Shown: positions 19,396 to 64,000, counted from the first letter of the stretch. The stretch is 64,000 nt of DNA from a virus (IMGVR_UViG_3300045912_000789:32001-96000), one strand, 5' to 3'. Notes: generated by a model not told the origin, from the letters alone. Translations and numbers: made by a program.

Positions 19396-19423
19396 CGCGG
19401 TACGAGTACGATAGCACAGCGAC

Positions 19424-23803: not shown

Positions 23804-26089
23804 ATGGCGATCAAGACGAAGGAGGAGATGTTCGGCGACGGCGGCGGCTTCGGTCCCGCCGTTCCGTACTCCACCACGAACCCTCCGGGCACGAGCGCCG
23901 GGAACCGGGGCATCCAGTTCGGTGAGCAGCTCACAGCGGCCATCGCGAACCGGACCCACTACGCGCTCGCCCTGAACGACGAGGACCTCAACGCCCGCCT
24001 CGCCTCGTTCGAGGTGGGCGGCCTCAACGGCGCCTACGACAACGGCACCGTGGGCCCGTCCGGCGGAGGACGCGACATCACGAAGGACGCCGGCGCGGTC
24101 GAGACCGTCAGCTCGGTGGGCGCGATGTCGGGCGACACCGTCCGGGACAACGCGCACTTCCGGGCGAACGCGCTCGGCGACACCGCCGGCGGCTCGGTCG
24201 GCTTCGACTTCCTCGCTCGTCGCGTCGGCGCGAGCGGCCAGAGCGGATTCGACGCCATCGCCGGCCTGCTCGATCGTCGGGTGTTCGCGAAGACCACCGG
24301 CCTGACGCAGCTCACGAACTCGAACGTCGCCACGCTGAACCCGGGCGGCGCGCTGGCCACCACGGTGCGGCTGTCGGCCGGCCAGTTCCACAGCGGCGGC
24401 AACACGGATCTAGCGCGAGGCTACGATCTCGTCCAGATCAGTGGCACCGCAGGCTCCGACGGTCTCTACATCTTCTCGAACGTCGGCGGCCTGACCACCG
24501 ACGCCATCCTGGAGACCCTGGACGGTGGAGCGCCGGCGTTCGTCGCGAACGAGGCGTGCACGATCACGGTCTACCGGATCCGCTTCGGCACGTTCGGCAG
24601 CTTCACGAACCGCACGCGACTCTCGGCGGCGGTCTCGGTCGGCATGCCGGATGCCACGTCGGCCCTCGATGTCCTCGCTGCGCGGAACCAGAGCGACACC
24701 CCGGCCGGTGGGTCGGATCGCGCTCTCCGGGTGATGCGGAAGAACAACGACGGCTCCACCGAAGAGGGCCTGGTGATCGATCACCTGGGCCGGATGGAGC
24801 AACTGCTCGATCGATCGTCGGACATCATCGACGAAGTCGACAAGAACGTCCGGATGGGCGGTTACTACACGTGGAAGCAGTACGCCACGAACCCCGGAGT
24901 CGGGCACGTCCTCCAGTCGTACTCCACGATCTCGAATCGTTACGACTTCCTGTCCCTCGTGCCGTTCGACCCCGCGGTGGTTCCCGCGATCACGCCGCTG
25001 ACCGGCGTGACCATGACGTTCACGGCGAACTCGCCGGTCACCGGCGAGTTGCTCTTCAACGCGCCGCAGAGCGCGAACCTGCCGTTCTACCTGTTCGGCA
25101 TCGGCATGTTCGTCGAGATTTCGGGAGCCAGCACGGCCAACGGGCTCTACTACGTCGCCGAGCACATCGTGTCCGGTAACCAGGGCTTCCTGCTGCGTCG
25201 CGCCGACAACTCGGTCCCGACGCACTTCCCGGCAGCGGGCACGTGCACGCTCAACGCCGTCTACAGCTCGTCGGGTCTCGGACGGAAGGTGAACTTCCCC
25301 AACGCTCTCGGCCTCTCCGGAAGCGGCGCGACTGTCACCGCACACAACGTCCTCTCGGGCGGTCCCGAGGTGGATTCGGCGGCGCTCGCGCTGTTCATGC
25401 CGGACAAGACCATCGGCGGAGGCACGCGATCGTTCATCAAGATGTTCGCGTCCGCTCCCGGTCTCGGTGACAACTTCGGAGAGGCGGTGTCGATCGACGC
25501 GGATGGTGACATCCGAACGGTTGGCGTCGTCACGTCGCTTGGTCACGTCACCGGTGACCAGATGACGGTCTCCGGTAACTACTTCATCACGTGTGCACAG
25601 ACCGATCGCACGATCAACGTCGATCTGCGGAACGGCTACCCCGAGGAAGACGCATCCGGGAATCCTCTCTGGAGGTTCGACCGCACGAACGGCTGGTGGG
25701 AGCTGATCACCCTGGGCGGTGGTGGCGACTCTGCGCTCTACTTCCCGATCATGTTCACCGGGCGACTGATGCAGACGTATGCGCAGTCGTTCTCGTCGGC
25801 GGGCAGCATCCACACGGTCTACGCGGCTCTCCAGATCACGACCCCGAACTGGGGTACTCCGGCCAATCCCCCTGGTGTCACCAACGCGAACGAGTCCTCG
25901 ATCTCGTTCGGTAACGGCGTCTGGGGCGAGGGCTTCATCAGCCACAGCCTCGGGTCGGGTACGCTGATCAACCTGGGCTCCAACAACTACGCGATTCGCA
26001 TTCGTGGTGAGCGTGTGGGCGACAGGCTGCGGGCCCTCAAGCACGTCGTCCGCTACACCAGAATCGGACCGGGCGGCATCGGAGGCTGA
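23804..26089 (+). CDS. Tail fibre / receptor-binding protein (761 aa)
   Basis: Gly/Ser/Thr/Asn-rich modular protein after the baseplate genes; AIANRTHYAL resembles the N-terminal anchor of fibres. Confidence 0.65.
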   Translation: MAIKTKEEMFGDGGGFGPAVPYSTTNPPGTSAGNRGIQFGEQLTAAIANRTHYALALNDEDLNARLASFEVGGLNGAYDNGTVGPSGGGRDITKDAGAVETVSSVGAMSGDTVRDNAHFRANALGDTAGGSVGFDFLARRVGASGQSGFDAIAGLLDRRVFAKTTGLTQLTNSNVATLNPGGALATTVRLSAGQFHSGGNTDLARGYDLVQISGTAGSDGLYIFSNVGGLTTDAILETLDGGAPAFVANEACTITVYRIRFGTFGSFTNRTRLSAAVSVGMPDATSALDVLAARNQSDTPAGGSDRALRVMRKNNDGSTEEGLVIDHLGRMEQLLDRSSDIIDEVDKNVRMGGYYTWKQYATNPGVGHVLQSYSTISNRYDFLSLVPFDPAVVPAITPLTGVTMTFTANSPVTGELLFNAPQSANLPFYLFGIGMFVEISGASTANGLYYVAEHIVSGNQGFLLRRADNSVPTHFPAAGTCTLNAVYSSSGLGRKVNFPNALGLSGSGATVTAHNVLSGGPEVDSAALALFMPDKTIGGGTRSFIKMFASAPGLGDNFGEAVSIDADGDIRTVGVVTSLGHVTGDQMTVSGNYFITCAQTDRTINVDLRNGYPEEDASGNPLWRFDRTNGWWELITLGGGGDSALYFPIMFTGRLMQTYAQSFSSAGSIHTVYAALQITTPNWGTPANPPGVTNANESSISFGNGVWGEGFISHSLGSGTLINLGSNNYAIRIRGERVGDRLRALKHVVRYTRIGPGGIGG

Positions 26090-28813: not shown

Positions 28814-28822
28814 GCTCATAGG
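28814..28822 (-). promoter_or_regulatory. Class B motif CCTATGAGC
   Basis: Followed by AG and SD AAGGAG before ATG 28791. Confidence 0.6.
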
Positions 28823-29681: not shown

Positions 29682-29755
29682 CCCCGGCGGGAGCGGCTCC
29701 ACACCGGGGATGGGCTGGATCGGCTTGCGTTCCCAGGCGGTCGGCCGGGAGGACG

Positions 29756-30214
29756 TCAGCCGTTTCCCAGCAGCTCGACCTTGATGTCCATGTCCTCGGC
29801 GTTCGCCTTCACCTTCGGGTCGGTGAAGATCTGGACGACGAGGAGGTCGTGGATCTTGCGCTGGAGCGCGATGCTCGTGTCGAGCTTCTCGCCCACCTCC
29901 TTCAGGAGCGCGCGGTCCGCCGCGGTCATGCCGCCGCCCCCGCCGCTCTCGGCCTTGCCGCCCTCGGCCTTGCTGACGGCGTCCTTCTTGCCGCCGCCCG
30001 AGGCCTTCGTCTCGGTCGCCGGGGCGCCCTCGCCCTGGTGCTTCATGATGATCGCGACGCGGTCCTCGGTGCTGAGCGGCATGTAGTCGGGCGACGCCAT
30101 GCCGAGCGCGCGGAGCGCGTCCGTGACCTGCTTGCGCTGCGCGGCGTCCTGGCTGTTGCCCAGCTCGATCCACTTCTCGCGCGACTTCGGCTCGATTCCG
30201 TTCGGGAGTGCCAT
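29756..30214 (-). CDS. Hypothetical protein (152 aa)
   Basis: SD GAGGAG before ATG 30214; strong codon bias. Confidence 0.7.
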   Translation of the reverse strand: MALPNGIEPKSREKWIELGNSQDAAQRKQVTDALRALGMASPDYMPLSTEDRVAIIMKHQGEGAPATETKASGGGKKDAVSKAEGGKAESGGGGGMTAADRALLKEVGEKLDTSIALQRKIHDLLVVQIFTDPKVKANAEDMDIKVELLGNG

Positions 30215-46572: not shown

Positions 46573-46590
46573 CCTCCACCTGCTGATAGG
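46573..46590 (-). promoter_or_regulatory. Class B motif plus SD, CCTATCAGCAGGTGGAGG
   Basis: Exact match to 5920..5937 (+). Confidence 0.7.
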
Positions 46591-46595: not shown

Positions 46596-46625
46596 TTGAC
46601 CGCTTTCCCCTCTCCGAGATACGCT
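46596..46625 (+). promoter_or_regulatory. Class A promoter TTGACC-N18-TACGCT, leaderless
   Basis: -10 box ends 6 nt before ATG 46632. Confidence 0.7.
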
Positions 46626-46631
46626 TCGGGC

Positions 46632-50265: not shown

Positions 50266-51221
50266 TGAACGCGTACGACGTCTTCTACGAGGAGGTCACG
50301 AAGTCGGCGACAGCCACACGGGCGCTCACCCGTGCTGCTCGCTGGCTGACCGAATCGCCCGGGCGAACCGCCCTGGTCGGTGCCGGAGTCGGTGCCGCCC
50401 AGGGCGCGCTCATGCACGGGGACGAAGGCGTCGGTGCGGCAGCCCTCAAGGGCGGCCTTCGAGGGGCGGCGGTCGGTGGAGCTGCCGGCGGGCTCGGGCG
50501 CGCCTACCGCGACACCCGTCTGCTCAACCCGGCGCTGTCGTCGGGCGCGGCGGTGGGCGAGACCGCGAAGCGGATCGGTCAGGGCATCAAGGACTTCGGC
50601 AAGCGTCAGATCCACGGCTTCACCGGCGCGTACGCCGACCAGGCCGGTGAGATCGGCATGCGCAGTCGAGCTGCTGCGTCCAAGAAGATTGATCTCCTTC
50701 GCAAGCGCCAGGCCGATCTGGCCGCTCACGGAGAGCTGACCGACAAGGCGAAGAAGAAGCTCGTCGAGGAGGCGAAGGGTCTCCGCGAGTGGGGCGCCGG
50801 CGGAGACGCGGCGCTCAAGGCGGGGATCACGAACATCCCCGGCATCGTGAAGGGCATGGCGACGCGCCCGTTCTCCACGATGAAGGCGATGGGCAAGGAC
50901 ATGGTCGGCGGAGGCGGAGCCCTGGGTACCTCGGTCGCGCTCGGGCTCCCCCTCGCCATCGCAACTCCCGATCTGGCTCGCGGAGACGAGAGTGCGCACG
51001 GCGGGCGGTCCATGAGGCAGAAGCTCGTGGGCGTCGGCTCGGGTCTCGTCGGAGGCGCACTCACCGCGGGCGTTCCCGTTCTTCCCCAGCTCGTGGGCGG
51101 CGTGGCCGTCGACGCAGCAGCGAGCAAGGCGCTCGGCGGGAAGAAGCGTCTCGCGAAGGCCTCTCGTGAGGCCGGACAAGAGGCGATCAACACCACCCTC
51201 GGCGTTCCCGGAGGGACCTGA
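50265..51221 (+). CDS. Gly/Ala-rich glycine-zipper putative internal head/ejection protein (318 aa)
   Basis: TGATG coupling; begins MNAYDVFYEEVTKSA; repeated GAGVGAAQG-type segments. Confidence 0.6.
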   Translation: MNAYDVFYEEVTKSATATRALTRAARWLTESPGRTALVGAGVGAAQGALMHGDEGVGAAALKGGLRGAAVGGAAGGLGRAYRDTRLLNPALSSGAAVGETAKRIGQGIKDFGKRQIHGFTGAYADQAGEIGMRSRAAASKKIDLLRKRQADLAAHGELTDKAKKKLVEEAKGLREWGAGGDAALKAGITNIPGIVKGMATRPFSTMKAMGKDMVGGGGALGTSVALGLPLAIATPDLARGDESAHGGRSMRQKLVGVGSGLVGGALTAGVPVLPQLVGGVAVDAAASKALGGKKRLAKASREAGQEAINTTLGVPGGT

Positions 51222-53143
51222 TGTTCTTCAGCGGCGTTTCAGGTTCTGCCCTCGGCATGGGTGGTCGGATGGCGGTGAGCGGCAACGCGAACCGCAGCGA
51301 GATCCTCGGCCGTAGGTACCAGCCCTTCGCGAACCCCTTCTTCGATCAGGCGAGCACGTACACGCCGCCGTCGATCAAGGCACTGTTCGGGTTCTGTCGG
51401 TTCTACTTCCTGACGCACGGCATCATCAACGCCGTCGTCACCAAGGCCGCCGAGTACCCGGTCACCGATCTCATCCTCCAGCACAAGGACGAGGGCGTCC
51501 GCTCGCGGTGGGAGGAGCTGCTGCTGGGCGTGATGAACTACCGCGTCCACCAGTACGAGATCAACCTCGACTACTTCGTCTACGGCAACGCGTTCCTCAG
51601 CGCGAGCTTCCCGTTCCGCAAGAAGCTGATCTGCGGCAACAGCATGTGCCGCGCAGAGCACGACTGCCTCAACGTCCGGCCGAGCTGGCGCTACATCAGC
51701 GGTCGGTTCTGGTTCCAGTGCCCGACCTGCGGTCAGACCGACTTCGCTCGGAGCCGCGACGACTACTATCCGAAGTACAGCGAGATCGGTCTGATCCGCT
51801 GGAACCCGGAGTACGTCCACATCTTCTACAACGAGGCCACCGGCCGGATGGACTACGGGCTCGACATCAGCCCGGACTTCCGCGCGCAGGTCATGATGGG
51901 CCGCAAGGATCTCGTCGCGACCACACCCGAGATCTTCCTCGAAGCCGTCCGCACGCACCGTCAGCTCGTGTTCGACAAGTCCGAGGTCTTCCACATGCGG
52001 AGGCCCGGGCTGTCCACGATGTCGCGCGGCTGGGGCATCCCGCTGCTCATGCCGGTGCTGAAGGATGCCTTCTACATCCAGGTGATGCGCAAGGCGCAGG
52101 AGGCCGTGCTCCTCACGCACCTCGTGCCGCAGATCTTCCTGTTCCCGCAGCCGGCCACCGCCGGCGCGGATCCGTTCACGACGGTGGACCTCGCGAACTG
52201 GCGAGACCACATCCGGCGCGAGCTGGCGCGCCAGCGCGTCGACCCCAGCTACTACGGCATCCTGCCGTTCCCGCTCGGTCACCAGGTCATCGGCGAGAAC
52301 GGGCGCAGCCTGCTGCTGATGCCGGAGATCCAGCAGATGTACGAGATCATGGTGGCGGGCCTCGGCTTCCCCATCGATCTCGTCTTCGGTCACGGCACGT
52401 ACGCCGGCACCAGCGTGTCGATGCGCATGCTGGAGAACTTCTTCCTCTCGAACGTGCTCGGCCATCACCGCCTGCTCGACTGGGTGCTGAAGCGGATGGG
52501 CGCGTACATGAACTGGCCGCTGCCGCAGGGCCGCTTCAAGCCGTTCCGCATGGCGGACGATCTCCAGCGCCAGGCGATGATGATGCAGCTCAACCAGTTC
52601 GGGAAGGTGAGCGACGCCACCCTGCTCTCGTACACCGATCTCAAGGTCGAGGACGAGGCGGAGCTGATGCTCAAGGAGGCGAAGGTCAAGGCGGAGGCGC
52701 TCCGACAGAAGACGCTCGTCGAGGCCGAGGCCCAGGGTGAGGCTCAGCTCGTGATCGCCAAGTACCAGGCACAAGCCCAGGCGGCGATGCAGAAGGGCAT
52801 GCTGAAGGAGACCGCGCCGAAGCGGACGCCGTTCGACGAGATCCAGGGTCAGAGCGCAGCAGCCCAGCCGGGCGGCTACTCGATGGACGCCGTCGCGGCG
52901 GCTCTGGCGAACAAGATCAAGACGATGCCGCCCGAGCAGCAGAAGGTGTACCTCCAGCAGCTCCAGCAGAAGGCCCCCGAGATGGGCGAGCTGCTGGCGC
53001 AGCAGGGGCTCATGATGCCGCCCGAGGCCGGGGCGGTCCTGCCGGGCCAGGACGGCTCCCAGGGCGCGATGCCGGCCCCTCCGGCGGTCGACATGCGCCC
53101 GATGCCCGAGCAGCTCCCTCCGCGCCGCGCAGGGGCCGTCTGA
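51221..53143 (+). CDS. Portal protein with inserted Zn finger
   Basis: IINAVVTKAAEYP, LDYFVYGNAFLS, FHMRRP...GWGIPLLMP and LGFPIDLVFG are typical of portals; Q/P/M-rich C-terminal tail. Confidence 0.75.
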   Translation: MFFSGVSGSALGMGGRMAVSGNANRSEILGRRYQPFANPFFDQASTYTPPSIKALFGFCRFYFLTHGIINAVVTKAAEYPVTDLILQHKDEGVRSRWEELLLGVMNYRVHQYEINLDYFVYGNAFLSASFPFRKKLICGNSMCRAEHDCLNVRPSWRYISGRFWFQCPTCGQTDFARSRDDYYPKYSEIGLIRWNPEYVHIFYNEATGRMDYGLDISPDFRAQVMMGRKDLVATTPEIFLEAVRTHRQLVFDKSEVFHMRRPGLSTMSRGWGIPLLMPVLKDAFYIQVMRKAQEAVLLTHLVPQIFLFPQPATAGADPFTTVDLANWRDHIRRELARQRVDPSYYGILPFPLGHQVIGENGRSLLLMPEIQQMYEIMVAGLGFPIDLVFGHGTYAGTSVSMRMLENFFLSNVLGHHRLLDWVLKRMGAYMNWPLPQGRFKPFRMADDLQRQAMMMQLNQFGKVSDATLLSYTDLKVEDEAELMLKEAKVKAEALRQKTLVEAEAQGEAQLVIAKYQAQAQAAMQKGMLKETAPKRTPFDEIQGQSAAAQPGGYSMDAVAAALANKIKTMPPEQQKVYLQQLQQKAPEMGELLAQQGLMMPPEAGAVLPGQDGSQGAMPAPPAVDMRPMPEQLPPRRAGAV

Positions 53144-53182: not shown

Positions 53183-54625
53183 CTACGACCACAGCTTGTA
53201 GAGGTTCGGCGGGGTGTAGTCCGCCAGGACCCTCTCGATGTGCTTCCACTGGGGGTGGGAGCGTACGGCGTTCTCGATGTCCGGGCTCGATGCCCCGTGC
53301 GGCTTCAGGAGCGCGAGGAACGAGATCGTGTCGTTCTCCGTGACGTCCCGCAGAGCCTCACGGACCATGATCGATTCACGGTTCATGCGGTGCAGACGGT
53401 CCATCACTGTCTCCCAGTCGGCGATCGACGAGGCGTCGGTGATGCGGAGGTTCTTGGCGGCGCGGTCCGCCTCGTTCTCGATGTTCGGCAGACGCTTCAC
53501 TCGGCCTGGGTGATCGGTGAGGAAGCGCCTGAGCACGACCGGCCCGAGCTTCTCGGCGTACGGCAGAGCCGCAGCCCGCAGCCCAGGCTGCTTCGTCACC
53601 GGCTCGATCAGCATCCAGTCCATCTCGTCGAGGATGTTGATGATCCCGATTGAGCGCACAGCGCGGACCTCGTCGATGGTGGGGGCGCGCCCGATGCGCT
53701 CCAGGATCTCCTTGCGGACGTCCGGAGCGCTCTGGGCGAGCTGGCGCAGGCCCATCACGTAGTGCTCTTCGGAGGTGTCGCTTCGGAAGAGCGCCACCAT
53801 CTTCCGCGACCCTTGGAGATCGTCGAACAGGCTCGCGGCTCTCTGTGGCGTGCAGAGCCGGACGAAGACGGCCATGTCCGCGTAGCGGAACCCGCCCTTC
53901 TTGTCGCCGGTGCACAGCTTGCGGGCCTGGTCGAACGCTGCCTCGCGCATGGCAGGCAGCACGTCGCGGTTCTTCAGGCCCGAGATCATCGCGAACGCTT
54001 CGATGTTCTGGGGCCCGAGCCGCTGCTTCAGGCGGTGGGTGTAGCTCTCGGGCGTGAACGCACCTTCGAGGTAGAACGAGTCGACCTGATCATCCATCGC
54101 GACACGAGGGAGCCGAAGCTCCTCGAAGTCGGGGATGACCCAGGTGCGCGTCATGTTCCGATCCGTGAACCACTTCCCCCAGTCCATCTTGCCGAGGTCG
54201 GGGTCGCGGAAGAACTCCGGCATCTTCGCCGCCGCCCACCGATCCCGCGACTTGATCAGCGCCGCACGCTCTTCGAGGACGAGCTTCGCCGCTTCCTCGT
54301 TCCCGAACACGGCGTAGTACGCGGCGATGTGGAGCGGGTCGCTGAGTCCGTGATCGTCGTCGGTCTTGTACGGGTTCTTGTACCCGATGCCAGCCGTTCG
54401 TAGCCGCACCGGGTTGATCCCGTACGCCACCGCCTTCGACCACGTCACGTCGCTGTCGAGCTGGCTGGTCTCCTGCACGAGGCCCAGGATCTGTCGTAGA
54501 CGATCCCCGGACGCCATGAGCATCGCGTCGAAGGTCCGGTTCTCCGAGACGCTGATGTAGCTGTACCTGAAGAACCGCTCTCGGATGATCTGGTTCGCCA
54601 GGTTCTGGATGAGAGAGATCACCAT
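53183..54625 (-). CDS. Hypothetical protein (480 aa)
   Basis: ATG 54625 overlaps the end of the VWA gene; no recognised motif. Confidence 0.65.
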   Translation of the reverse strand: MVISLIQNLANQIIRERFFRYSYISVSENRTFDAMLMASGDRLRQILGLVQETSQLDSDVTWSKAVAYGINPVRLRTAGIGYKNPYKTDDDHGLSDPLHIAAYYAVFGNEEAAKLVLEERAALIKSRDRWAAAKMPEFFRDPDLGKMDWGKWFTDRNMTRTWVIPDFEELRLPRVAMDDQVDSFYLEGAFTPESYTHRLKQRLGPQNIEAFAMISGLKNRDVLPAMREAAFDQARKLCTGDKKGGFRYADMAVFVRLCTPQRAASLFDDLQGSRKMVALFRSDTSEEHYVMGLRQLAQSAPDVRKEILERIGRAPTIDEVRAVRSIGIINILDEMDWMLIEPVTKQPGLRAAALPYAEKLGPVVLRRFLTDHPGRVKRLPNIENEADRAAKNLRITDASSIADWETVMDRLHRMNRESIMVREALRDVTENDTISFLALLKPHGASSPDIENAVRSHPQWKHIERVLADYTPPNLYKLWS

Positions 54626-55830
54626 GAGACGTCCATGAAGAAGTTGCGCCCCCAGGGCTGAGGTCGACCGTTCTGCGGGATGACCCAGATCGTGTTGGGG
54701 TAGGCCCGCTCGGGCAGGAAGATGTGCCCGTCCGTGAGGCATGCGCAGGCCTTCGGCTTGAACTTGTCGTACAGCTCGAAGACGCCGCGCACCGAGGTGT
54801 GGCTGTGGGCTCCGGAGAGGAACTTCACGTTCTCCAGGATCTTCGCCGGATGCTTGGTCCGATGGACCTCGCGGACCACGGCGTCGAAGGTCACGACGAT
54901 CGTCTCGGTTGCGCGCATTGCTGCGGGCATCACGTTCGAGATGAAGGTCTTCATCAGGGTAGGTCCGACGGAAGCCGAGACGTCGATCGCGAGCAGGAGC
55001 TTCTGTTCCTTCACCGACCGCATCGACGGCAGCGTGATGTCGGGGAAGTATCTCGCCTTCGGAGGGGCGTACGTCGGCATGTCGTAGCCCATGTCGGCGA
55101 GGAGCCGGCCGCGCAGCAGCCTCGACCAGGGCACGCTGCCCTTGATGATCTCTTCGAGTCGGCTGGATACGGTCTTGCCGAACATCTGCTCCAGCGTCTG
55201 GTTCTTCACCTGCTGCTGGATCAGGACGGCCTGCTGAAGCTCCTCGGTGAACTTCCGGCGGAACTCCTCCTCCTCCTGACCGACCGTCGACTTGTTCTCC
55301 GCGTCCCGATCGAACAGGAAGTCGGTGCCCTTCTCGATCTCGCCCTTGCCCTTCGCCGGAGCCGGCATGGGGTGCTTCTTCTCGATGAGGGCGTCGTAGA
55401 TCTGCTCGGCGGTCATGTCCTTCGCCCACTCCGGCGGGATCACGCCGTCCTCCGGCGGCTTCCACTGCTTGCCACCGTCTCGCGAGAGGATGCTGCACGC
55501 CTCTCGGACGACCACGATGTCCGCGGCGATGTTCCAGACCTTGCGGTTGCGATCACCGCATCGGGCGACGTGGTTGAAAAAGATGTGCAGCCACTCGTGG
55601 AGCGTGTCGAACACGCGCCCGTCGTGCTCGTTCTTCTTGATCCACTTCGGGGCGTAGTGCACGCGGCGCCCGTCGGTGGCCATGGTGTCGATCGTGGGGT
55701 CTTCCACGACCTCTACGGCCTCTCCCAGGTAGGAGAGGCCGCAGAGCGGGAAGAACAGCAGCAGGTCCTGGAGGGCCCGCCGGAACATCTCGTAGGCCTC
55801 ACGGTCCTTGATGCTGTTCTCGATGATCAC
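54619..55830 (-). CDS. HExxH metallopeptidase-like plus VWA domain protein (DUF2201-like)
   Basis: TMATDG, HEWLH, WNIAAD; MIDAS DVSAS...LTDG; GTGA coupling. Confidence 0.85.
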   Translation of the reverse strand: MIIENSIKDREAYEMFRRALQDLLLFFPLCGLSYLGEAVEVVEDPTIDTMATDGRRVHYAPKWIKKNEHDGRVFDTLHEWLHIFFNHVARCGDRNRKVWNIAADIVVVREACSILSRDGGKQWKPPEDGVIPPEWAKDMTAEQIYDALIEKKHPMPAPAKGKGEIEKGTDFLFDRDAENKSTVGQEEEEFRRKFTEELQQAVLIQQQVKNQTLEQMFGKTVSSRLEEIIKGSVPWSRLLRGRLLADMGYDMPTYAPPKARYFPDITLPSMRSVKEQKLLLAIDVSASVGPTLMKTFISNVMPAAMRATETIVVTFDAVVREVHRTKHPAKILENVKFLSGAHSHTSVRGVFELYDKFKPKACACLTDGHIFLPERAYPNTIWVIPQNGRPQPWGRNFFMDVSW

Positions 55831-57032
55831 GACGTGGTTCCTTGGTCTGTGGCAGCCGAGATCTTGCTGCCCGGGACGGCCTTCTGCTTCCCGTCGGAGG
55901 TCAGCGTGTACTCGGCGAGCATCTCGTCTCCCGTCTCGGGGAAGTGGCTCGCGATGTTCACGCGGACCTTGTGCTTGAGCTGCACGATCAGCGCGACGCG
56001 CATCTCGCCGTCGAGAGCAGGGACCCACTTCTTCAAGCCCACGTGCTTCTTCTCGACGCCCTTCACGTTGAGGTACTGGGCGACGGCGAAGACCGAAGCG
56101 TACTGCTGCATCCGGCGAGCAGCGGCGTCGCCGGAGAGCTGAAGGTTCCCGCGGTGTAGGATCTCCTGGACGTCGACCTTCTGGATGATCTCGTACCAAG
56201 CCCAGAAGTCGTTCGCGACGTGGTCGCCGACCTTGCGCGCGACGATGCCCTTCCAGTTCTCCTTCGCTCCGTTCTGGAACACGTCCTCCACCGGGTTGAA
56301 GTACTCGAAGAGCTGCTGCGAGGCCTCCCACCACCCGCGCGGGGTGGGGAACCGCGCCACGCCTTCCTTCCACTCGTGGAGGTGGGCCGGCTTGAACTGG
56401 AGGTAGCCGATCACGGCTTCGTGGATCTCGCCGCTGTCGCGGCCGTACTCGGTGAAGCTGAGGATGTCCGGTGCCATCTCGATGATGGTCATGCGGGTCC
56501 GCAGCGACTCCGAGATCTCGTTCGCGTAGATGTCGTCGTCGAGCCTGTTCCCGGCGCCCATGATGAGGGTGCCGGGGTGCAGGTCCTTGTCGCGGAACTT
56601 GCGGTTCGCGGTGACGCCGAGCAGGGCGCCCTGCACGACCGGCGGAGCCTTGTCGAGGTCGTCGAAGAAGAGGAAGCCCGGCTGGATGCACGCCATGGCG
56701 GCGTAGCGGTTCAGCACCCACTCCATGTACGCGCCCCGCGCGCCGGCCTTCTCCGACTCGGTGCCGTTCTGCATCAGCCACCGGATCATGCCGGGAACGG
56801 GCACCCCCGACACGTCCGTGGCGTCGCTGTTCTCGCCGCAGTTGATCGCGAGGAGCGTGAGCGAGTAGTGCTCACAGGCGCGACGAGCGATGGCGGTCTT
56901 GCCGCCGCCCACCGGCCCGAGGAGCAGCGGGTTGTTGAGCGGGTGTTCGACGCCCTTCTGGATCAGCTTCGTCTGCATCTCCAGCTCGCGGCGTACCAAG
57001 ATCTCGGCCGGCTTGAACCCGTACGTCGTCAT
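55827..57032 (-). CDS. MoxR-like AAA+ ATPase
   Basis: Walker A GPVGGGKT, Walker B FLFFDDLDK, GAGNR, arginine finger ESLRTR, FPTPRGW. Confidence 0.85.
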   Translation of the reverse strand: MTTYGFKPAEILVRRELEMQTKLIQKGVEHPLNNPLLLGPVGGGKTAIARRACEHYSLTLLAINCGENSDATDVSGVPVPGMIRWLMQNGTESEKAGARGAYMEWVLNRYAAMACIQPGFLFFDDLDKAPPVVQGALLGVTANRKFRDKDLHPGTLIMGAGNRLDDDIYANEISESLRTRMTIIEMAPDILSFTEYGRDSGEIHEAVIGYLQFKPAHLHEWKEGVARFPTPRGWWEASQQLFEYFNPVEDVFQNGAKENWKGIVARKVGDHVANDFWAWYEIIQKVDVQEILHRGNLQLSGDAAARRMQQYASVFAVAQYLNVKGVEKKHVGLKKWVPALDGEMRVALIVQLKHKVRVNIASHFPETGDEMLAEYTLTSDGKQKAVPGSKISAATDQGTTS

Positions 57033-57412
57033 TCGTCCTCCTCGTCTTCCTCTTCTTCGTCTTCGTCTTCGTCGTCTTCGGCTTCCTCGGCGTACATCGC
57101 CTGTTCGACGAGATCCGTGTAGCACTGCTCGTGCGCGTACTTCGTGACTGTCTCGTCCGTGACGAAGCCGAGCTGGTTGTTCGGCAGCTTCACGATCTGG
57201 AGCTTGGCGTCCGGGTCCGGCACGAACATCGGGACGTCGAACTCTCGGCTCGGGAAGATCATCCCCGGGATCATCATGATGACGGGGGTGCCCACCCCGA
57301 CGTTCTCTTCCCCGCAGAGATCGCACGGGGCGGTGATGTCGTCGAAGCCCTCGAAGTTGTTCGGGGGCTCCGCTTCGGCTTCCATCTGCTCTCTGCTGAT
57401 CTTGTCCTTCAT
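57029..57412 (-). CDS. Acidic hypothetical protein with CxxC...HxxC (127 aa)
   Basis: CDLC...HEQC; poly-D/E tail; ATGA coupling. Confidence 0.65.
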   Translation of the reverse strand: MKDKISREQMEAEAEPPNNFEGFDDITAPCDLCGEENVGVGTPVIMMIPGMIFPSREFDVPMFVPDPDAKLQIVKLPNNQLGFVTDETVTKYAHEQCYTDLVEQAMYAEEAEDDEDEDEEEEDEEDE

Positions 57413-57520
57413 TCAGCCTCCGATGAGCCATCTCCAGAACGGGCTGTTTGTCACGGCGTCGACCACACCGAGGGCGAAGCCAGCGGCGAACGACCAGAAC
57501 ACGACCGAGAAGAGGCTCAC
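57413..57520 (-). CDS. Small membrane peptide (35 aa)
   Basis: Not in the ORF track. MSLFSVVFWSFAAGFALGVVDAVTNSPFWRWLIGG; GTGA coupling upstream and stop abutting the next ATG. Confidence 0.55.
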   Translation of the reverse strand: MSLFSVVFWSFAAGFALGVVDAVTNSPFWRWLIGG

Positions 57521-57657
57521 CCGGGTTCCTCCGAGAGGCCCTCGATGGACTTCTCCAGCGCCTCGTTCAGGTCGTTCTCGAACCTGGTCAGGCTGTCGTC
57601 GTGCTCGTACTGGTCCTGGTCTTCGGCTTCCTTCGTCTGTTCGTTGGGATCGTGCAT
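57517..57657 (-). CDS. Small acidic protein (46 aa)
   Basis: SD GGAGG and class B motif upstream of ATG 57657. Confidence 0.55.
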   Translation of the reverse strand: MHDPNEQTKEAEDQDQYEHDDSLTRFENDLNEALEKSIEGLSEEPG

Positions 57658-57673
57658 CTGGTCCTCCACGCCT

Positions 57674-57682
57674 GCTGATAGC
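57674..57682 (-). promoter_or_regulatory. Class B motif GCTATCAGC(AGG)
   Basis: Shares CTATCAGCAGG with the sites at 5920 and 46590. Confidence 0.65.
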
Positions 57683-57698
57683 TGCGAGGACGCTCGCG

Positions 57699-57728
57699 TT
57701 GACCCATATTCGAGGGCGCGGGTAGACT
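57699..57728 (+). promoter_or_regulatory. Class A promoter TTGACC-N18-TAGACT, leaderless, driving the RNAP gene
   Basis: Same geometry as 46596..46625; -10 box 6 nt before GTG 57735. Confidence 0.7.
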
Positions 57729-57734
57729 GCGTGG

Positions 57735-60700
57735 GTGCTGACATCGGACCCCCACCACCAGTTCGAGGAACTGAAGGATCAGCTCCTTCAGCAGATCGGC
57801 CAGACTTTCCCGGTGAAGGACCGGTCGGGTCGGTTCGAGGTGCGCGTGAGCGACCTCAAGATCGAGGATCGTCTCGGGGTCGACGACATCAAGGACCAGT
57901 TCAAGGCGAAGATGGAGGGCCGGTCGTGGGCCGCTCCCGTCGTCGGAACGATCGAGATCGTCGACACCACGTCGGGGAAGACGCTGGTCAGCAAGAAGAA
58001 CTCGCCGGTCGCCAAGATCCCGAAGCTGACGCGTCACTACAGCTACATCATCGGCGGGTCGGAGAAGTTCATCGCGAACCAGTGGCGCCTGCGTCCGGGC
58101 GTCTACGTGAAGGCGACCGAGAAGCCCGGCGAGTTCGAGGCGCAGTTCCAGCTCGCCAAGGGCCGCAGCTTCGATCTCCAGACCGGTGACAGTGGCGAGA
58201 TCTACATGAAGCTGGGGTCGCGGAAGATCCCGCTCTACAGCGTTCTGAACGCCATGGGCGTCGACGACGAGGCGATGAAGAAGGCGTGGGGTGCCGACGC
58301 CTACGAGGCATCGCGCAAGAAGGCCAACGTCGCGCGCGACCTCAAGTCGCTCTACGAGACCTGGCGCAAGGAACCGCTCGGGGAGAAGGCCGATCCGGTC
58401 CTGGAGACGAAGGCCATCTTCGAGGGCACCCGCATCGATCCGGTCGTGGCGCACGCCAACGTCGGTGTGAAGTCCGAGCGGGTCGACAGTAGCGTGCTCT
58501 TCGAGGCCTCGAAGAAGCTGCTGGACGTCGCCGCCAAGCGGAAGGATCCGGACCCCATCGACAGCCTCCGATACAAGGAGCTGTGGACCGCGAAGGACCA
58601 GTTCGTCGATCGGATCGCCAAGGCCGCACCCGACATCGAGTCTCGGATCCAGCGCGCGCTGGGGAAGCCCACGGTTCAGCGTCGTCTGGCGTCGGGCGAC
58701 CACAGCGTCCTGCGCGACGTGTTCATGCCCGACCTCATCCAGCGCCCGCTCTACCACGTCTTCACGACGTCCCTGGCGGCGAACGGGAAGCAGACGAACC
58801 CCGTCTCGATGCTCTCGGACCGGTCCATGGTGACGATCACGGGACCGGGCGGCATCCAGAACCCGCACGCGCTGTCGAAGAGCAACACGTCGCTCGACCC
58901 GTCGCACCTCGGCTTCCTCGACCCGGTGTTCACGCCCGAGTCGAACGCCGGCGTGAACACGCACCTCACCTTCGGTGTGTCGATCAAGGATCGGAAGCCG
59001 TACGTCCGGCTCTACAACACGAAGACCGGGAAGATGGAGGACGTCGACGCCGCGACCGCGGCAGTCTCGAACGTTGTCCTCCCCGACCAGGTGCGGTGGG
59101 AGAAGGGCACGCCGAAGCCCCTCAGCAAGACGGTCCGGATGTCGGACTCCCGCGGCCACATGCGCGACGACATCGCGTTCTCCTCGGCCGACTACGTGAT
59201 GCCGAGCGCGGCGCAGGTCTTCGCCGTCGAGACGAACCTCGTGCCGTTCATGCAGAACGACAGCGCCGGACGCTCGACGATGTCGGCTCGGCACATGGCC
59301 CAGGCCATCTCGGTGGTCGGCCGTGAGCCGCCCAAGGTGCAGGTCGAGGCCGGCGCCGGGAAGTCGTTCGAGGCGATCATGGGCTCCGGGTTCCTCGCGC
59401 ACCGCGCCAAGGCGGACGGTGTGGTGAAGGAGATCAAGAAGGACGAGATCGTCATCCAGGGCAAGGACGGGACGCATTCGGTTCACCTCTATCACCACTA
59501 CCCAACGAACGATCCGAAGGGCCAGCTTCACAGCTCGCCGCTGGTGAAGCCGGGGGACCGCGTCCGAGCCGGGCAGATCGTCGCGGACAACAACTACACG
59601 AAGAACGGCACGCTCGCGCTGGGCGCGAACCTGCGCGTGGCGTACCTGGCCAACGGCTCGAACCACGAGGACGGCATCGTCATCTCGCGAAGCGCCGCCG
59701 ACCGCTTGGCGTCCGAGCACCTCTACAAGCCCAGCATGCTCCTCTCCGACACCCACGTGCTCGGGAAGAAGGAGTTCCTGATCGGCAAGCCGGGGGTCTA
59801 CTCGAAGGATCGCATCGACAAGATCGGTGACGACGGCATCGTCAAGCCCGGTACGAAGGTGAAGCCGGGCGACCCGCTCGTGCTGGCGCTCGGCGAGGTC
59901 ATGCTGCCCGGGACCGCCGACATCAACGCGAAGTACAAGATCGGCAAGCGCCTCCGCAACAAGTACCAGAACAGCTCGATGGTCTGGGACGGCGACTACG
60001 AGGCCGAGGTCGTGCGTGCGGAGCGCGTCGGCAAGAACGTCGTCGTCCACCTCAAGACCCTGGAGCCGGCGCAGATCGGCTCGAAGATCTCCACGCGCCA
60101 CAGTGCGAAGGGCATCGTCACGGAGATCATCGACGACAAGGACATGCCCCACGACGAGAAGGGCAAGCCCGTGGAGATGCTGATCAACCCGGTCAGCGTG
60201 CCCGGACGCATGAACCCCGGCCAGCTCCTGGAGACGGCCGCGGGGAAGATCGCGGACAAGACGGGACGCCCGTACTTCGTCCGCAACTTCCAGGGAGGCA
60301 CCGACTACCTCAAGAAGATCCAGGACGAGCTGAAGCAGCACGGACTGAAGGACACCGAGACGCTCTACGACCCGAAGACGGGCCGGAAGCTCGGCGACGT
60401 GATGGTCGGTCCGCACTACGCCTTCCAGCTCGAACACCAGATCGACAAGAAGACGCACGTGCGCGCCGGCGGCTACGGCAGCGAGCTGCTCCAGTTCGAC
60501 GCGCCGAAGATCCACTACGACAACGACACGCGTGTCCCTCGCGGTGGCGGCCACACCGGCGCGCAGAGCCTCGGCAGCCTTGGCATCTACGCCGCGCTGG
60601 CCGCCGGCCTGAAGGACAACCTGCGCGAGATGCAGACGCTGAAGTCGGACCAGCCGCAGGCCCGTGAGGTCTGGGGCGCGCTGGCGAACGGTGAGCGCAT

Positions 60701-63700
60701 CCCGGCACCGAAGATCCCGTTCGTCTTCAAGAAGTTCGAGTCGATGCTCACGGGCCTCGGCGTGAACGTCGAGAAGTCGGGCGCTGAGATCCGCCTGATG
60801 CCGCGCAGCGACGCCGAGACGCGAGCCATGAGCCGTGGCGAGATCACGCGCCCCACCCGTAGCATCCGCGGCAAGGACGACAAGCCGGAGCAGGGCGGGC
60901 TCTTCGACCCGAACATCACCGGCGGTCCTGCGGGCCAGCACTGGGGCCACGTCGAGCTGGTCGAGCCGATGCCGAACCCGGTGTACGCCCGGGCCATCGC
61001 GCACACGCTCGGCATCAAGGAGACCGACATCCCCAAGATCATCGAGGGGAAGGCGAAGCTGCCGAACGGAGAGATCGGCGGCAAGGCGTTCCGCGACGCT
61101 CTGAAGTCGATCGACATCGACAAGGAGATGAAGGCGACGGCCGCGGCGCTGAAGGATCCCAAGGTGAAGGGCGCGCAGCTCGACAAGCTGCACTTCAAGT
61201 ACCGCGCGCTGAAGACCGTGAAGGACGCCGGCAAGCGGCTCGACGAGGCCTGGACCATCAAGGCCGTGCCGGTGCTGCCGCCCGTGTTCCGCCCGCAGGC
61301 CACGCTGCCGGACGGGACGATCAAGAACAACCCCCTCAACGCGCTCTACAAGCGTCTCGGCATGGTGAACGAGTCGCTCAAGAAGGGCGAGGGCAAGGTT
61401 CCCTACAACAACACGCTCGATGCGCGCGCCGGTCTCTACCAGGAGCTGTCGAACCTCTTCGGCACCACGCCGAAGGGGAAGAAGGCGCTCGACCTCGACA
61501 TGCGCGGCACGAAGGAAGATCCCGACAAGACGCTGCCCGGCATCATCCACATGATCTCGGGTGACCAGCCGAAGGACGGGTTCTTCCAGGACAAGATGAT
61601 CGCGAAGAAGCAGGACTACACGTCCCGTGCGACCATCGTCGTGGACCCGAACCTGTCGGTGGACGAGATTGGTCTGCCGAAGAAGATTGCCATCGAGCTG
61701 ATGCGCCCGATGGTGGCGCGCCGCCTCGTCCAGGCCCGCATCCGGCCGGACGAGGCGCAGAAGATGATCAGCCGCAAGGACCCCATCGCCATCAAGGCTC
61801 TGGAGCAGGAGGTCCAGCACCGTCCCGTCCTGATGAAGCGCGACCCCGTGCTGCACCAGTACGGTCTCGTCGCCCAGCGGGCGAAGCTCACCGACGACCC
61901 GGCGATCAAGGTGAGCCCGCTCATCCTGCCGCCGCTCGGCGGCGACATCGACGGCGACACCGTGGCGCTGATGGTCCCCCTCACCCAGGAGGCGATCGAA
62001 GAGGCGAAGCGCATCATGCCGTCGCAGCGCACGCTCAGCGACAGCTCGGGCGACGTGCTGTTCTCGCCGGCGAACGAGTCGGCCCTCAGCCTCTACCGCA
62101 TGTCGATCCCCCGCGGGAAGCACCAGGGGGCGCTGAAGGACAAGGACGAGGCGGAGGCGCTGTTCCGCTCGAACCGCATCCACCTCAACCAGCAGATCCA
62201 CGTGAAGGGCGTGGGCGACACCACGCTCGGACGGCTCCGCATCGCCGAAGTCCTGCCGGAGAAGTTCCGCCCCGACGTCCTCACCAAGCTCGACAAGCCG
62301 TTCGATCGCAAGGTCCAGGAAAGCATCCTGAAGGACGTCGCGAAGAACATGCCGAAGCACTTCGTCGAGACCGTCGACGGGATGAGCCGGCTGGGCTTCA
62401 AGATGGCCTACGAGTCGGGCCACACCGTCGGGCTGAAGGACATCGAGCCGCTGCGTGAGCACCGCGACAAGATCATCGCCGACGCCACCAAGGAGGTCGC
62501 GGCGATGAAGGCGCGCGGCGCGGACGCCGCAGAGACGACCGAGGCCTGGCTCCGGGCGACCCGGAAGATCCACGACGTCTACAACGACGTGCTCAAGGGC
62601 AAGCCCACGAACGTCTCGGACATGGCACCGGCGCCGCTGGGCTCCGGCATCAAGGCGAAGCGCGAGCAGTTCCAGGGGCTCATCATGGCCCCCATGCTGG
62701 TCGAGGATCACCTCGGCACCCCCTCGAAGGTGCCGATCACGAAGAGCTTCGCCGAGGGCATCGACCTCGGCGGCTACTTCCTCCAGGCCGCCGGCGCGCG
62801 TCGCGGCGTCATCCAGAAGACCGACTCGGTGCGCGAGCCCGGCTACATGAGCAAGCTGCTCGTGCAGGCGAACATCGACCAGCCGATCACCTCGGCCGAC
62901 TGCGGAACGACCCACGGGATGTCGATGCCGGTGACCCACAAGGACATCGTGGATCGGCACCTCGCCAGCGACGTGAAGATCGGCGACCACCTGTTCAAGG
63001 CCGGCACGGTCGTCACTCCAGACGTGCTGTCGAAGGCCAAGGAGAAGGGTGTCGATCAGCTCGTCGTCCACAGTCCGCTGAAGTGCCGGATGCCGCAGGG
63101 CGTCTGCTCGAAGTGCATGGGCGTGCACCCCAGCGGCAAGGAGTATCACCTCGGTGAGAACGTCGGCATCGTGGCGGCCCAGGCGCTCGGTGAGCGAGCG
63201 GCGCAGCTCATGCTGAAGCAAACGCACGGCGGCGGTATCGTGTCCACGGCCGGCCACAGCGTCTCGGAGTTCAGCGACGTGCAGCGTCTCTTCGACGCCG
63301 CGAAGCGGGGGCGCGAGGACGCAGCCCTGGCTCCCAACAACGGCAAGATCGTCGGTGTCCACCAGAGCAAGGCGGGCGACTGGGTCATCCAGTTCGAGCG
63401 CGGCAAGGTGAAGACCCGGCAGAAGCCGCTCCCGCACGTGAAGCCGGGCACCGAGGTGAAGCGCGGCGACACGCTCACCGCAGGCGACCCGAACATCCAC
63501 GATCTCCTGGCGACGAAGGGTCTCGACGCCGTCCAGGCTCACATGGTCGACAAGATCGGTACCATCTACGGCCGTGAGGGTGTGCTTCGTCGTCACGTCG
63601 AGCTGGCGGTTCGGAACGCCACGGGCGTCGTGCGGGTCACCGATCCCGGAGACCACGACGGCTACGTCCGTGGCGACTACGTCCAGAAGTCGGTGCTCGA

Positions 63701-63965
63701 CGAGATCAACCGCGGCGTCCTCAAGGGCAAGGAGGCGGTGAAGTACCAGCCGATGCTGCTGCCCACGAAGATGATCCCGCTGCGCCGGCAGGAGGACTGG
63801 ATCGCGCGCCTTCAGGGCGAGCGCATCGGCCAGAGCGTCCTGCGCGGCATCCAGCACGGCCACAAGTCGGACGTGACCGGACGACACCCCATCCCCGCTC
63901 TCGCCGTCGGTGTGACGGTCGGCGCGCCCGCCGACGCTCGCCCGTTCGGCACCGCTGCACGCTGA
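57735..63965 (+). CDS. rpoBC: Single-chain fused beta-beta' DNA-directed RNA polymerase (2076 aa)
   Basis: Beta motifs GPGGI, DPSHLGFLDPVFTPE, LVPFMQND, NHEDGIVIS, GSKISTRHSAKG, INPVSVPGRMNPGQ, LREMQTLKSD; then in frame beta' motifs PVLPPVFRP, KQDYTSRATI, KRDPVLH, catalytic DIDGD, bridge helix GARRG...GYMSKLLV, trigger loop AQALGE..QLMLKQTH. Confidence 0.95.
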   Translation: MLTSDPHHQFEELKDQLLQQIGQTFPVKDRSGRFEVRVSDLKIEDRLGVDDIKDQFKAKMEGRSWAAPVVGTIEIVDTTSGKTLVSKKNSPVAKIPKLTRHYSYIIGGSEKFIANQWRLRPGVYVKATEKPGEFEAQFQLAKGRSFDLQTGDSGEIYMKLGSRKIPLYSVLNAMGVDDEAMKKAWGADAYEASRKKANVARDLKSLYETWRKEPLGEKADPVLETKAIFEGTRIDPVVAHANVGVKSERVDSSVLFEASKKLLDVAAKRKDPDPIDSLRYKELWTAKDQFVDRIAKAAPDIESRIQRALGKPTVQRRLASGDHSVLRDVFMPDLIQRPLYHVFTTSLAANGKQTNPVSMLSDRSMVTITGPGGIQNPHALSKSNTSLDPSHLGFLDPVFTPESNAGVNTHLTFGVSIKDRKPYVRLYNTKTGKMEDVDAATAAVSNVVLPDQVRWEKGTPKPLSKTVRMSDSRGHMRDDIAFSSADYVMPSAAQVFAVETNLVPFMQNDSAGRSTMSARHMAQAISVVGREPPKVQVEAGAGKSFEAIMGSGFLAHRAKADGVVKEIKKDEIVIQGKDGTHSVHLYHHYPTNDPKGQLHSSPLVKPGDRVRAGQIVADNNYTKNGTLALGANLRVAYLANGSNHEDGIVISRSAADRLASEHLYKPSMLLSDTHVLGKKEFLIGKPGVYSKDRIDKIGDDGIVKPGTKVKPGDPLVLALGEVMLPGTADINAKYKIGKRLRNKYQNSSMVWDGDYEAEVVRAERVGKNVVVHLKTLEPAQIGSKISTRHSAKGIVTEIIDDKDMPHDEKGKPVEMLINPVSVPGRMNPGQLLETAAGKIADKTGRPYFVRNFQGGTDYLKKIQDELKQHGLKDTETLYDPKTGRKLGDVMVGPHYAFQLEHQIDKKTHVRAGGYGSELLQFDAPKIHYDNDTRVPRGGGHTGAQSLGSLGIYAALAAGLKDNLREMQTLKSDQPQAREVWGALANGERIPAPKIPFVFKKFESMLTGLGVNVEKSGAEIRLMPRSDAETRAMSRGEITRPTRSIRGKDDKPEQGGLFDPNITGGPAGQHWGHVELVEPMPNPVYARAIAHTLGIKETDIPKIIEGKAKLPNGEIGGKAFRDALKSIDIDKEMKATAAALKDPKVKGAQLDKLHFKYRALKTVKDAGKRLDEAWTIKAVPVLPPVFRPQATLPDGTIKNNPLNALYKRLGMVNESLKKGEGKVPYNNTLDARAGLYQELSNLFGTTPKGKKALDLDMRGTKEDPDKTLPGIIHMISGDQPKDGFFQDKMIAKKQDYTSRATIVVDPNLSVDEIGLPKKIAIELMRPMVARRLVQARIRPDEAQKMISRKDPIAIKALEQEVQHRPVLMKRDPVLHQYGLVAQRAKLTDDPAIKVSPLILPPLGGDIDGDTVALMVPLTQEAIEEAKRIMPSQRTLSDSSGDVLFSPANESALSLYRMSIPRGKHQGALKDKDEAEALFRSNRIHLNQQIHVKGVGDTTLGRLRIAEVLPEKFRPDVLTKLDKPFDRKVQESILKDVAKNMPKHFVETVDGMSRLGFKMAYESGHTVGLKDIEPLREHRDKIIADATKEVAAMKARGADAAETTEAWLRATRKIHDVYNDVLKGKPTNVSDMAPAPLGSGIKAKREQFQGLIMAPMLVEDHLGTPSKVPITKSFAEGIDLGGYFLQAAGARRGVIQKTDSVREPGYMSKLLVQANIDQPITSADCGTTHGMSMPVTHKDIVDRHLASDVKIGDHLFKAGTVVTPDVLSKAKEKGVDQLVVHSPLKCRMPQGVCSKCMGVHPSGKEYHLGENVGIVAAQALGERAAQLMLKQTHGGGIVSTAGHSVSEFSDVQRLFDAAKRGREDAALAPNNGKIVGVHQSKAGDWVIQFERGKVKTRQKPLPHVKPGTEVKRGDTLTAGDPNIHDLLATKGLDAVQAHMVDKIGTIYGREGVLRRHVELAVRNATGVVRVTDPGDHDGYVRGDYVQKSVLDEINRGVLKGKEAVKYQPMLLPTKMIPLRRQEDWIARLQGERIGQSVLRGIQHGHKSDVTGRHPIPALAVGVTVGAPADARPFGTAAR

Positions 63966-64000
63966 TGGCACGGACCACTGGATCGCCGTCCCACAACCGC
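63965..64000 (+). CDS. Start of a gene translationally coupled to the RNAP (partial)
   Basis: TGATG overlap; MARTTGSPSHNR... open to the window end. Confidence 0.4.
   Translation, partial: MARTTGSPSHNR

Follow-up and report, generated by a model that had tools for sequence, protein, structure and literature searches.

A single-chain beta-beta' RNA polymerase gene and a sigma-70-family gene in a 172-kb metagenomic phage genome

The 64,000-nucleotide stretch of DNA analysed here (the window) comprises bases 32001-96000 of IMGVR_UViG_3300045912_000789, a 171,909-bp IMG/VR virus record with 66% GC. Two genes on its plus strand concern us: one with a GTG start codon at window positions 57735-63965, encoding a single-chain beta-beta' RNA polymerase (RNAP) of 2076 aa, and one at 5944-6774, encoding a divergent sigma-70-family factor of 276 aa. 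The original prediction, made from the sequence of the window, had described the first as a phage-encoded, fused and miniaturised bacterial-type RNAP; the second had been overlooked, and it changes the mechanistic picture. The feature is a variant of the phage-encoded cellular-type RNAPs that is widespread yet uncharacterised.

That beta segments followed by beta' segments occupy one stop-free frame of 2076 aa, as had been proposed, is confirmed by the agreement of the open reading frame (ORF), the order of Pfam domains and the profile alignment. The ORF has GC contents of 0.64, 0.41 and 0.93 at its three codon positions, as in real genes of this genome, and represents its one RNAP copy; an antisense ORF at 57588-63971 (2127 aa) was rejected as a high-GC shadow, its translation being of low complexity and rich in Arg, Leu, Ala and Val. 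Among the Pfam domains those of beta come first (Rpb2_6 at residues 558-918, E 2e-55, and, more weakly, Rpb2_3 and Rpb2_2) and those of beta' second (Rpb1_1 at 1018-1090, Rpb1_2, Rpb1_3, and Rpb1_5 at 1675-1840). When a 42-sequence family profile was used in profile-profile alignment (hhalign), residues 1-1017 aligned to Salmonella RpoB 38-1342 and residues 1000-2067 to RpoC 3-1362, each with a probability of 100%, and against the PDB the profile matched Thermus beta' at E 1.6e-163. The protein is thus of bacterial type, as had been claimed, with an identity to bacterial RpoB and RpoC of only ~27%.

The two modules meet without a linker, at the place originally given (residues 1009-1023, nt 60759-60803). 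Here the final strand of beta, GVNVEK, leads through the turn SG into the first beta' strand, AEIRLMP, a predicted hairpin at 60759-60809 on the plus strand. The junction is kept in 16 fused homologues, and also in gp206 of Salmonella phage Arash and 0261 of Vibrio phage D69, in which the polymerase is otherwise organised (see below). An AlphaFold2 (AF2) model of residues 870-1190, with a mean predicted local distance difference test score (pLDDT) of 80, predicts an antiparallel beta-hairpin across the junction, formed by model residues 141-146 and 149-154; averaged over 10-residue blocks, the pLDDT is 77 for the first strand and rises to 93 after it. The Foldseek matches of this model are bacterial beta' chains (clamps).

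How far the enzyme is reduced depends on the standard of comparison. Its shortfall of about 670 aa relative to E. coli was correctly stated (1342 + 1407 - 2076 = 673). The beta module (residues 1 to ~1013; 57735-60773, plus strand) keeps the fork loop and, compared with E. coli beta, lacks SI1 (~231-359), SI2 (938-1048), the first 37 aa and two short segments; the beta' module lacks SI3 (~943-1130), the zinc-binding domain (67-98) and the last 45 aa. SI1, SI2 and SI3 are lineage-specific inserts of E. coli and its relatives, and together they make up roughly 60% of the 673-aa deficit. The description 'miniaturised' is therefore overstated for most of the shortfall, while the losses of the zinc-binding domain, of ~95 aa of the beta lobe and of the termini are real. 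Relative to a Staphylococcus RNAP (~2390 aa, summed from its two open frames) the deficit is ~310 aa, composed of the ~95 aa of beta lobe, the 32-aa zinc-binding domain, several loops of 8-23 aa and the C-terminal tail. At the site of the deleted beta' N-terminal zinc-binding domain (60912-60953, plus strand) there is a remnant, ITGGPAGQHWGHV, with no cysteines, and the four-Cys domain (E. coli 67-98, Staphylococcus 48-79) has no counterpart in the fused protein. It is likewise gone from all members of the family, from Arash and from D69.

The catalytic elements, by contrast with these losses, are kept. The catalytic loop reads GGDIDGD (residues 1402-1408; 61938-61958, plus strand), so that the three Asp of NADFDGD are retained and its Asn-Ala-Phe is replaced. 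Across 40 homologues of 38-90% identity, D1404, D1406, G1407 and D1408 are invariant, as are R1369 (E. coli R425), the bridge helix, the trigger-loop His and the four Zn2 cysteines. Within the subclade of the window the loop takes the forms GGD(I/V)DGD, NGDIDGD or GADVDGD, whereas a more distant fused subclade retains NADFDGD. The bridge helix (~1683-1715), the second zinc site (C1723, C1784, C1791 and C1794) and the trigger loop (~1808-1862) were placed by alignment at 62781-63320 on the plus strand, with no SI3 insert. Around the trigger loop and jaw hhalign left scattered gaps, and the jaw and the C-terminal trigger-loop helix were identified by eye; on that reading the jaw and both trigger-loop helices are present and SI3 alone is missing there. 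In the beta module the active-site segment RH..KG is kept at residues 779-799 and the flap tip at 719-746. Lid, rudder, clamp helices and flap tip are all invariant or nearly so in the 40 homologues; the beta' clamp helices map to residues 1198-1247 (61326-61475, plus strand) and are the predicted docking site of the phage sigma. Because the catalytic elements are invariant across these 40 homologues, and because the family comprises 961 clusters (see below), the sequences indicate strong purifying selection over a large radiation. The equivalent of rifampicin cluster I (residues 344-370; 58764-58844, plus strand, by alignment) differs in its key residues, with, in E. coli numbering, Q513 replaced by A, D516 by K, H526 by D, R529 by M and S531 by T. 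Since these residues of the pocket are replaced, the enzyme is probably insensitive to rifampicin.

The attribution to a phage, here an uncultured tailed phage, is borne out by the rest of the record. Its CheckV completeness is 100%, and it encodes a large terminase (PHROG 675, E 5e-44), a portal protein (51221-53143, plus strand; tblastn to Arash gp204 and D69 0259, E 2e-70), PolA, DnaB, a UvsX-like protein and topoisomerase II. The RNAP gene sits between the portal gene and that of a gp5-like baseplate hub (a weak match), which follows directly downstream, its start sharing one base with the RNAP stop codon. The gene order agrees with that of Arash.

Because the record is a single metagenomic contig, one may ask whether the fusion is an artefact of assembly or of a frameshift, or whether the contig is cellular with an ordinary rpoBC. 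Among 5.8 billion proteins, more than 110 clusters (clustered at 90% identity) match the query at 52-100% identity; nearly all are of 2040-2150 aa and cover 99-100% of it, and many lie on 150-200 kb contigs. Another group, at 37-39% identity, is of equal length. When the query was a segment of 501 aa across the junction, 961 clusters (at 50% identity) were found at E <= 1e-30 among 1.84 billion representatives; of the best 150, almost all cross the junction in one stretch, and the lengths of the matches fall mainly at 2000-2100 aa, or at 2400-4739 aa with inteins. The same uninterrupted architecture and length thus recur in hundreds of independent assemblies, and, judged from these sequences, chance or misassembly is excluded as the origin of the fusion, which is the standard form of a huge metagenomic phage family and not a singular oddity. 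GC at third codon positions is uniform at 0.93, the genome is that of a complete phage with terminase, portal and hub, and an ordinary cellular rpoBC is at odds with the low identity to RpoB and RpoC. We regard an artefact or a cellular origin as scarcely credible.

A phylogeny leads to the same view. The tree holds 24 sequences, only three of them bacterial (unfused) RNAPs, and speaks to separation from those three, not to a deep placement or to the position relative to Bacteria as a whole. All fully fused proteins form one clade (Shimodaira-Hasegawa-like approximate likelihood ratio test, SH-aLRT, 99), sister to Arash plus D69; Cobetia phage Carin-5 lies further out on a long branch, its placement uncertain. 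The three bacterial RNAPs lie across a branch of total length 1.0 from the phage clade, and the protein is therefore found among phages, opposite the sampled bacteria, and not inside a bacterial rpoBC clade. A scan of contigs with the single protein as query gave no match; a profile scan found fused relatives of 33-38% identity on contigs of 30-176 kb placed in metagenome-assembled genome (MAG) bins of unrelated phyla, and such bins give no usable host. Those contigs with the fused RNAP that measure 160-176 kb were binned with Desulfatibacillum, Anaerolineales, Myxococcales and Leptolyngbyaceae, and are probably whole phage genomes mis-binned as bacterial. Members of the family are currently annotated only as "beta'" or as hypothetical.

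Many of the homologues of 2400-4739 aa bear one or more intein or homing-endonuclease inserts, of which the gene in the window has none. At least four intein sites were seen: after ~796, after ~821 (NPVS|VPGRMN), after ~971 and at ~1408-1416, in or just after the catalytic DGD loop (DGD|TV). Inteins at catalytic motifs are typical of essential enzymes.

The sigma factor is a homologue of Arash gp10 (tblastn, 32% identity, E 1e-21). As a single sequence it has no match in Pfam (including PF04542, PF04545 and PF08281) or among PHROGs. A 30-sequence profile matches RpoD, SigA, RpoS and FliA in the PDB, with E down to 1.4e-13, over regions 2-4 (profile positions 41-271); some homologues carry PF04539, and the 50 top Foldseek matches listed for its AF2 model (pLDDT 80) are all sigma factors. 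The gene lies among homologues of the Arash structural genes gp8, gp12 and gp13. Homologues of the sigma share contigs of 172,748, 188,773, 180,808, 170,146, 159,778 and 179,829 bp with the fused RNAP. Complex prediction for the sigma with RNAP residues 1018-1340 gave a score of 0.84, against 0.00 for the best of three controls, a mark reached by 58 of 80 solved complexes and by 2 of 110 mismatched pairs. Between runs, at least 58% of the contacts are shared, the partner pLDDT is at least 73, and the predicted interface is the canonical one, between RNAP clamp helices 1193-1237 and sigma residues 55-98; this result may reflect likeness to solved sigma-beta' complexes and is not proof that the pair binds. 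On the whole it is likely that the phage sigma pairs with the single-chain core.

There is a different scenario, in which the sigma-like protein serves the host RNAP and the single chain uses some other initiation factor or none. Phage sigmas that redirect a host core are common, and this one is close enough to cellular sigmas to match RpoD at E 1e-13; moreover, according to reviews, the known jumbo phages that encode an RNAP have no sigma, and those that encode a sigma have no RNAP (PMC7824862). The co-occurrence of sigma and fused RNAP on large contigs, and of sigma and RNAP in Arash too, is opposed to such a division of labour, as are the retention of clamp helices and flap by the phage core and the outcome of the complex prediction with the phage clamp, with the caveat just given. 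In Carin-5 (cultured, 155 kb), a more distant phage, there is an annotated sigma-beta-beta' gene string with separate and very small subunits, a beta of 1083 aa and a beta' of 927 aa, which shows that the module of RNAP plus sigma is wider than the fused clade. We consider a host-serving sigma distinctly unlikely.

A second question is whether the single chain needs alpha and omega. The original prediction found neither gene in the window, and this absence extends to the whole 172-kb genome, in which the models for alpha (PF01000 and PF01193) and omega (PF01192) have no match; the controls were positive in 14 of 14 cellular genomes. Two candidates, one for an alpha substitute and one for an accessory subunit, were rejected. 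The first, a 116-aa protein, is encoded at record positions 29755-30105 on the minus strand, ~1.9 kb before the start of the window, by a gene preceded by the CCTATCAGC motif. Its N-terminal helix-hairpin-helix scores 21.5 bits against the alpha C-terminal domain PF03118, below the cut-off of 23.8, and since its close homologues make up no more than three clusters, it does not qualify as a conserved subunit. The second, a small protein encoded ahead of the RNAP gene in Arash (gp205) and D69 (0260), has no homologue here.

The alpha dimer is generally regarded as a platform that bacterial RNAP requires for its assembly, and the C-terminal elements of beta and N-terminal elements of beta' already lie side by side in the clamp of cellular enzymes. 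In the fused protein the C-terminal strand of beta leads, by a turn of two residues, into the first strand of beta'. Because these elements adjoin in the cellular clamp, the covalent linkage plausibly replaces the alpha-dimer scaffold that unites beta and beta'; no gene for alpha or omega was detected. Whether the enzyme would in this way be independent of host alpha is, in our estimate, evenly balanced. The fused protein could instead be a hybrid enzyme that cannot fold or work unless host alpha, and perhaps omega, is supplied: its fold, of bacterial type, has been well preserved, the Pfam models detect no alpha or omega gene in the phage, and cells with RpoBC fusions, those of Helicobacter and Wolbachia, keep both subunits. 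It is in cells that these natural fusions occur (PMC7483510). The relatives of the present phage, on the other hand, span hosts as different as Salmonella and Vibrio, and members of the fused family turn up in MAG bins from many phyla; in view of this range a conserved interface with host alpha seems unlikely. Also missing is the C-terminal tail of beta', the part that wraps around omega in E. coli, and other phage multisubunit RNAPs function without host alpha or omega (PMC13282480). A need for host alpha appears rather unlikely.

We suggest, as the more probable interpretation, that the locus encodes a functional single-chain, bacterial-type phage RNAP core that works with its own sigma, does not depend on alpha or omega, and is most likely carried in the virion. 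Promoters would be recognised by the phage sigma, whose region 2 would dock on the retained beta' clamp helices, and sigma and single chain would together transcribe phage genes without the host enzyme. The polymerase would be made together with the structural proteins and packaged, as in Arash. In purified Arash particles gp206 had the top spectral count, and gp216 and the sigma gp10 were also detected (PMC10585845). Delivery with the virion is suggested by these proteomic data and by the position of the RNAP and sigma genes in structural modules; it seems about as probable as its opposite.

Several points weigh against this interpretation. Activity, of this protein as of the fully fused clade, is something that we infer from sequence, and the loss of the zinc-binding domain together with replacement of the Asn of NADFDGD may mean that some canonical functions are altered. 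Alpha and omega were sought with Pfam models alone, and host alpha or omega could be recruited. By analogy with T4 gp55 and SPO1 gp28, the sigma could redirect the host core instead, and the complex prediction cannot tell a phage core from a host core. As to the virion, the Arash authors warn that abundant enzymes may contaminate preparations (PMC10585845).

A further point of this kind is the promoter of the RNAP gene. A sigma-70-like promoter, TTGACC-N18-TAGACT, lies at 57699-57728 on the plus strand and is the sole match to TTGAC-N17-20-TAnACT in the genome. Five relatives (76-83% protein identity) have the two hexamers unchanged, whereas the spacer between them has diverged. Since the promoter ends 6 nt before the GTG and there is no Shine-Dalgarno (SD) sequence, the arrangement implies a leaderless RNAP mRNA. 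A conserved promoter of host type is at least as compatible with early transcription by the host RNAP, on the pattern of T7, as with late expression for packaging. In a T7-like cascade the host RNAP would make the phage RNAP early, and the enzyme and its sigma would then take over, the RNAP being no functional component of the virion; the only full -35/-10 consensus in the 172-kb genome stands directly before the RNAP start, and the enzymes in Arash particles may merely have co-purified. The sigma gene, however, is preceded by a CCTATCAGC motif (5920-5928, plus strand, 23 nt upstream of its start codon) and no host-type promoter, and host RNAP alone would not obviously produce the holoenzyme. 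In addition, the RNAP and sigma genes are both embedded in structural modules, the spectral counts of gp206 are the highest in Arash virions (PMC10585845), and the phage sigma, having regions 2-4, might itself read the -35/-10 promoter. A cascade of this type is possible, in our opinion, though doubtful.

The motif before the sigma gene belongs to a second class of promoter-like signals. CTATNAG(C/G) occurs 28 times in the genome, against 8.6 +/- 3.2 in shuffled sequences, and 16 times it is followed within ~30 nt by an SD sequence and a start codon, against 0.3 expected. It typically lies ~8-10 nt upstream of the SD sequence and ~20-25 nt upstream of the start codon, and is found at the head of many non-structural genes as well as of the sigma gene. 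In the window, examples of (C/G)CTATNAG(C/G) are found at 1240-1248, 10106-10114, 28814-28822, 46582-46590 and 57674-57682 on the minus strand, in addition to the plus-strand site at 5920-5928. The site at 57674-57682, GCTATCAGC, shares a 77-bp spacer with the RNAP promoter, on the opposite strand, and is followed by an SD sequence and by ATG 57657 of a small divergent minus-strand gene; CTGATAG is invariant in the relatives. In several plus-strand genes, including genes of the structural module, the start codon is preceded at a distance of 6-8 nt by a TAnnnT hexamer and there is no SD sequence, at 1255-1271, 10131-10148, 19404-19423, 46614-46631 and 57723-57734, an arrangement that suggests leaderless mRNAs. 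The RNAP gene is the only one of these with a consensus -35.

A bolder form of our interpretation, which we offer tentatively, is that a 230-kDa chain and a 31-kDa sigma form a minimal holoenzyme. Neither alpha, omega nor the zinc-binding domain would be required for its assembly or for initiation; it would be packed into the capsid, injected, and would begin rifampicin-resistant transcription from CCTATNAGC-type promoters, with GGDIDGD altering the discrimination between ribo- and deoxyribonucleotides. If true, this would be a new infection strategy for tailed phages of less than 200 kb and would supply a ready-made orthogonal two-gene system.

With respect to the surroundings of these genes, a minus-strand block at 53183-57657 separates the portal and RNAP genes, which adjoin in Arash and D69. 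It comprises a 771-aa protein without a family match, an AAA_5-type ATPase (55827-57431) and the small ORF that starts at ATG 57657. Five very large proteins (761-1341 aa) are encoded on the plus strand at 1272-4838, 11462-14059, 15062-19087, 19424-23152 and 23804-26089 and have no PHROG match, the first of them having no Pfam match either; those at 1272-4838 and 15062-19087 show weak homology to the Arash virion proteins gp8 and gp13. The 64-kb window contains no tRNA genes. A T7-type RNAP (PF00940) was not found in a search whose control was uninformative, and megablast of the RNAP locus against cultured phages gave no match.

A natural single chain that has dispensed with the zinc-binding domain and has its own small sigma could reveal how little of the cellular enzyme is needed. 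A two-gene system, probably insensitive to rifampicin and with promoters of its own, would also be an attractive subject for structural studies and an attractive tool for orthogonal gene expression.

Finally, the locus may be compared with the phage and cellular systems that are known. The nearest are the Arash-like phages, which have a homologous sigma, a portal gene adjoining the RNAP gene (on its upstream side in Arash and D69) and genomes of similar size; Arash (gp206 and gp216, sigma gp10) and D69, both cultured, share with the present protein the linker-less junction and the loss of the zinc-binding domain. Unlike the single chain described here, the RNAP of Arash and of Vibrio phages D69, D181 and D148 is in two pieces, one of 1525-1527 aa that comprises beta with the initial ~510 aa of beta', and the other, of ~606-609 aa, the C-terminal part of beta'; the split falls near residue 1490-1500 of the fused protein, identity is only ~28%, and the catalytic loop is AADYDGD instead of GGDIDGD. 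The pieces are separated by small ORFs in Vibrio phages, by a homing endonuclease in D181 and D148 and by nine genes in Arash, and the split of beta' may be secondary, caused by mobile elements. The Arash paper labels the pieces beta and beta' and does not mention a fusion (PMC10585845).

The mReC phages (Weinheimer & Aylward 2020; PMC7481178) are uncultured tailed phages of 100-200+ kb whose bacterial-like beta and beta' fall outside the cellular clades. They were identified by separate matches of at least 800 aa to COG0085 and COG0086 and by an NADxDGD motif, with a T4-type Gp23 capsid where detected, and neither fusion within mReC nor sigma is discussed (PMC7481178). Because its loop is GGDIDGD and not NADxDGD, the subclade of the window would probably be excluded by that screen. 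T4-type Gp23 (PF07068) has no match in the genome, in a search whose control genomes could not have responded to a phage family. A literature search found no paper on a family of single-chain RNAPs with a sigma.

Cellular precedents for the fusion exist in Helicobacteraceae and Wolbachia; these enzymes are of full size and work with alpha, omega and the host sigma. In them a single polypeptide contains beta and beta' in head-to-tail order (PMC7483510), as in the present protein, which differs in belonging to a phage clade; the two are set apart here by description, the bacteria in our tree being unfused. The RNAPs of phiKZ and AR9 are two-barrel enzymes without alpha or omega, independent of the host, with one set packaged in the virion (PMC7824862, PMC13282480). 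They consist of four to five highly diverged polypeptides and are accompanied by no sigma-70-family gene (gp68 and gp226 instead), in contrast to the one chain, plainly similar in sequence to bacterial beta and beta', and the recognisable sigma found here. Closer in being single polypeptides are gp66 of crAss-like phages, YonO and the tape measure protein (TMP)-fused RNAP of P23-45, also two-barrel phage enzymes and in some cases delivered with the virion; in these the homology to beta and beta' is barely detectable, most accessory domains are gone and there is no sigma-70 factor. The fused family thus links the cellular enzymes to the fragmented phiKZ/AR9 type on the one hand and to the unrecognisable crAss/YonO type on the other.

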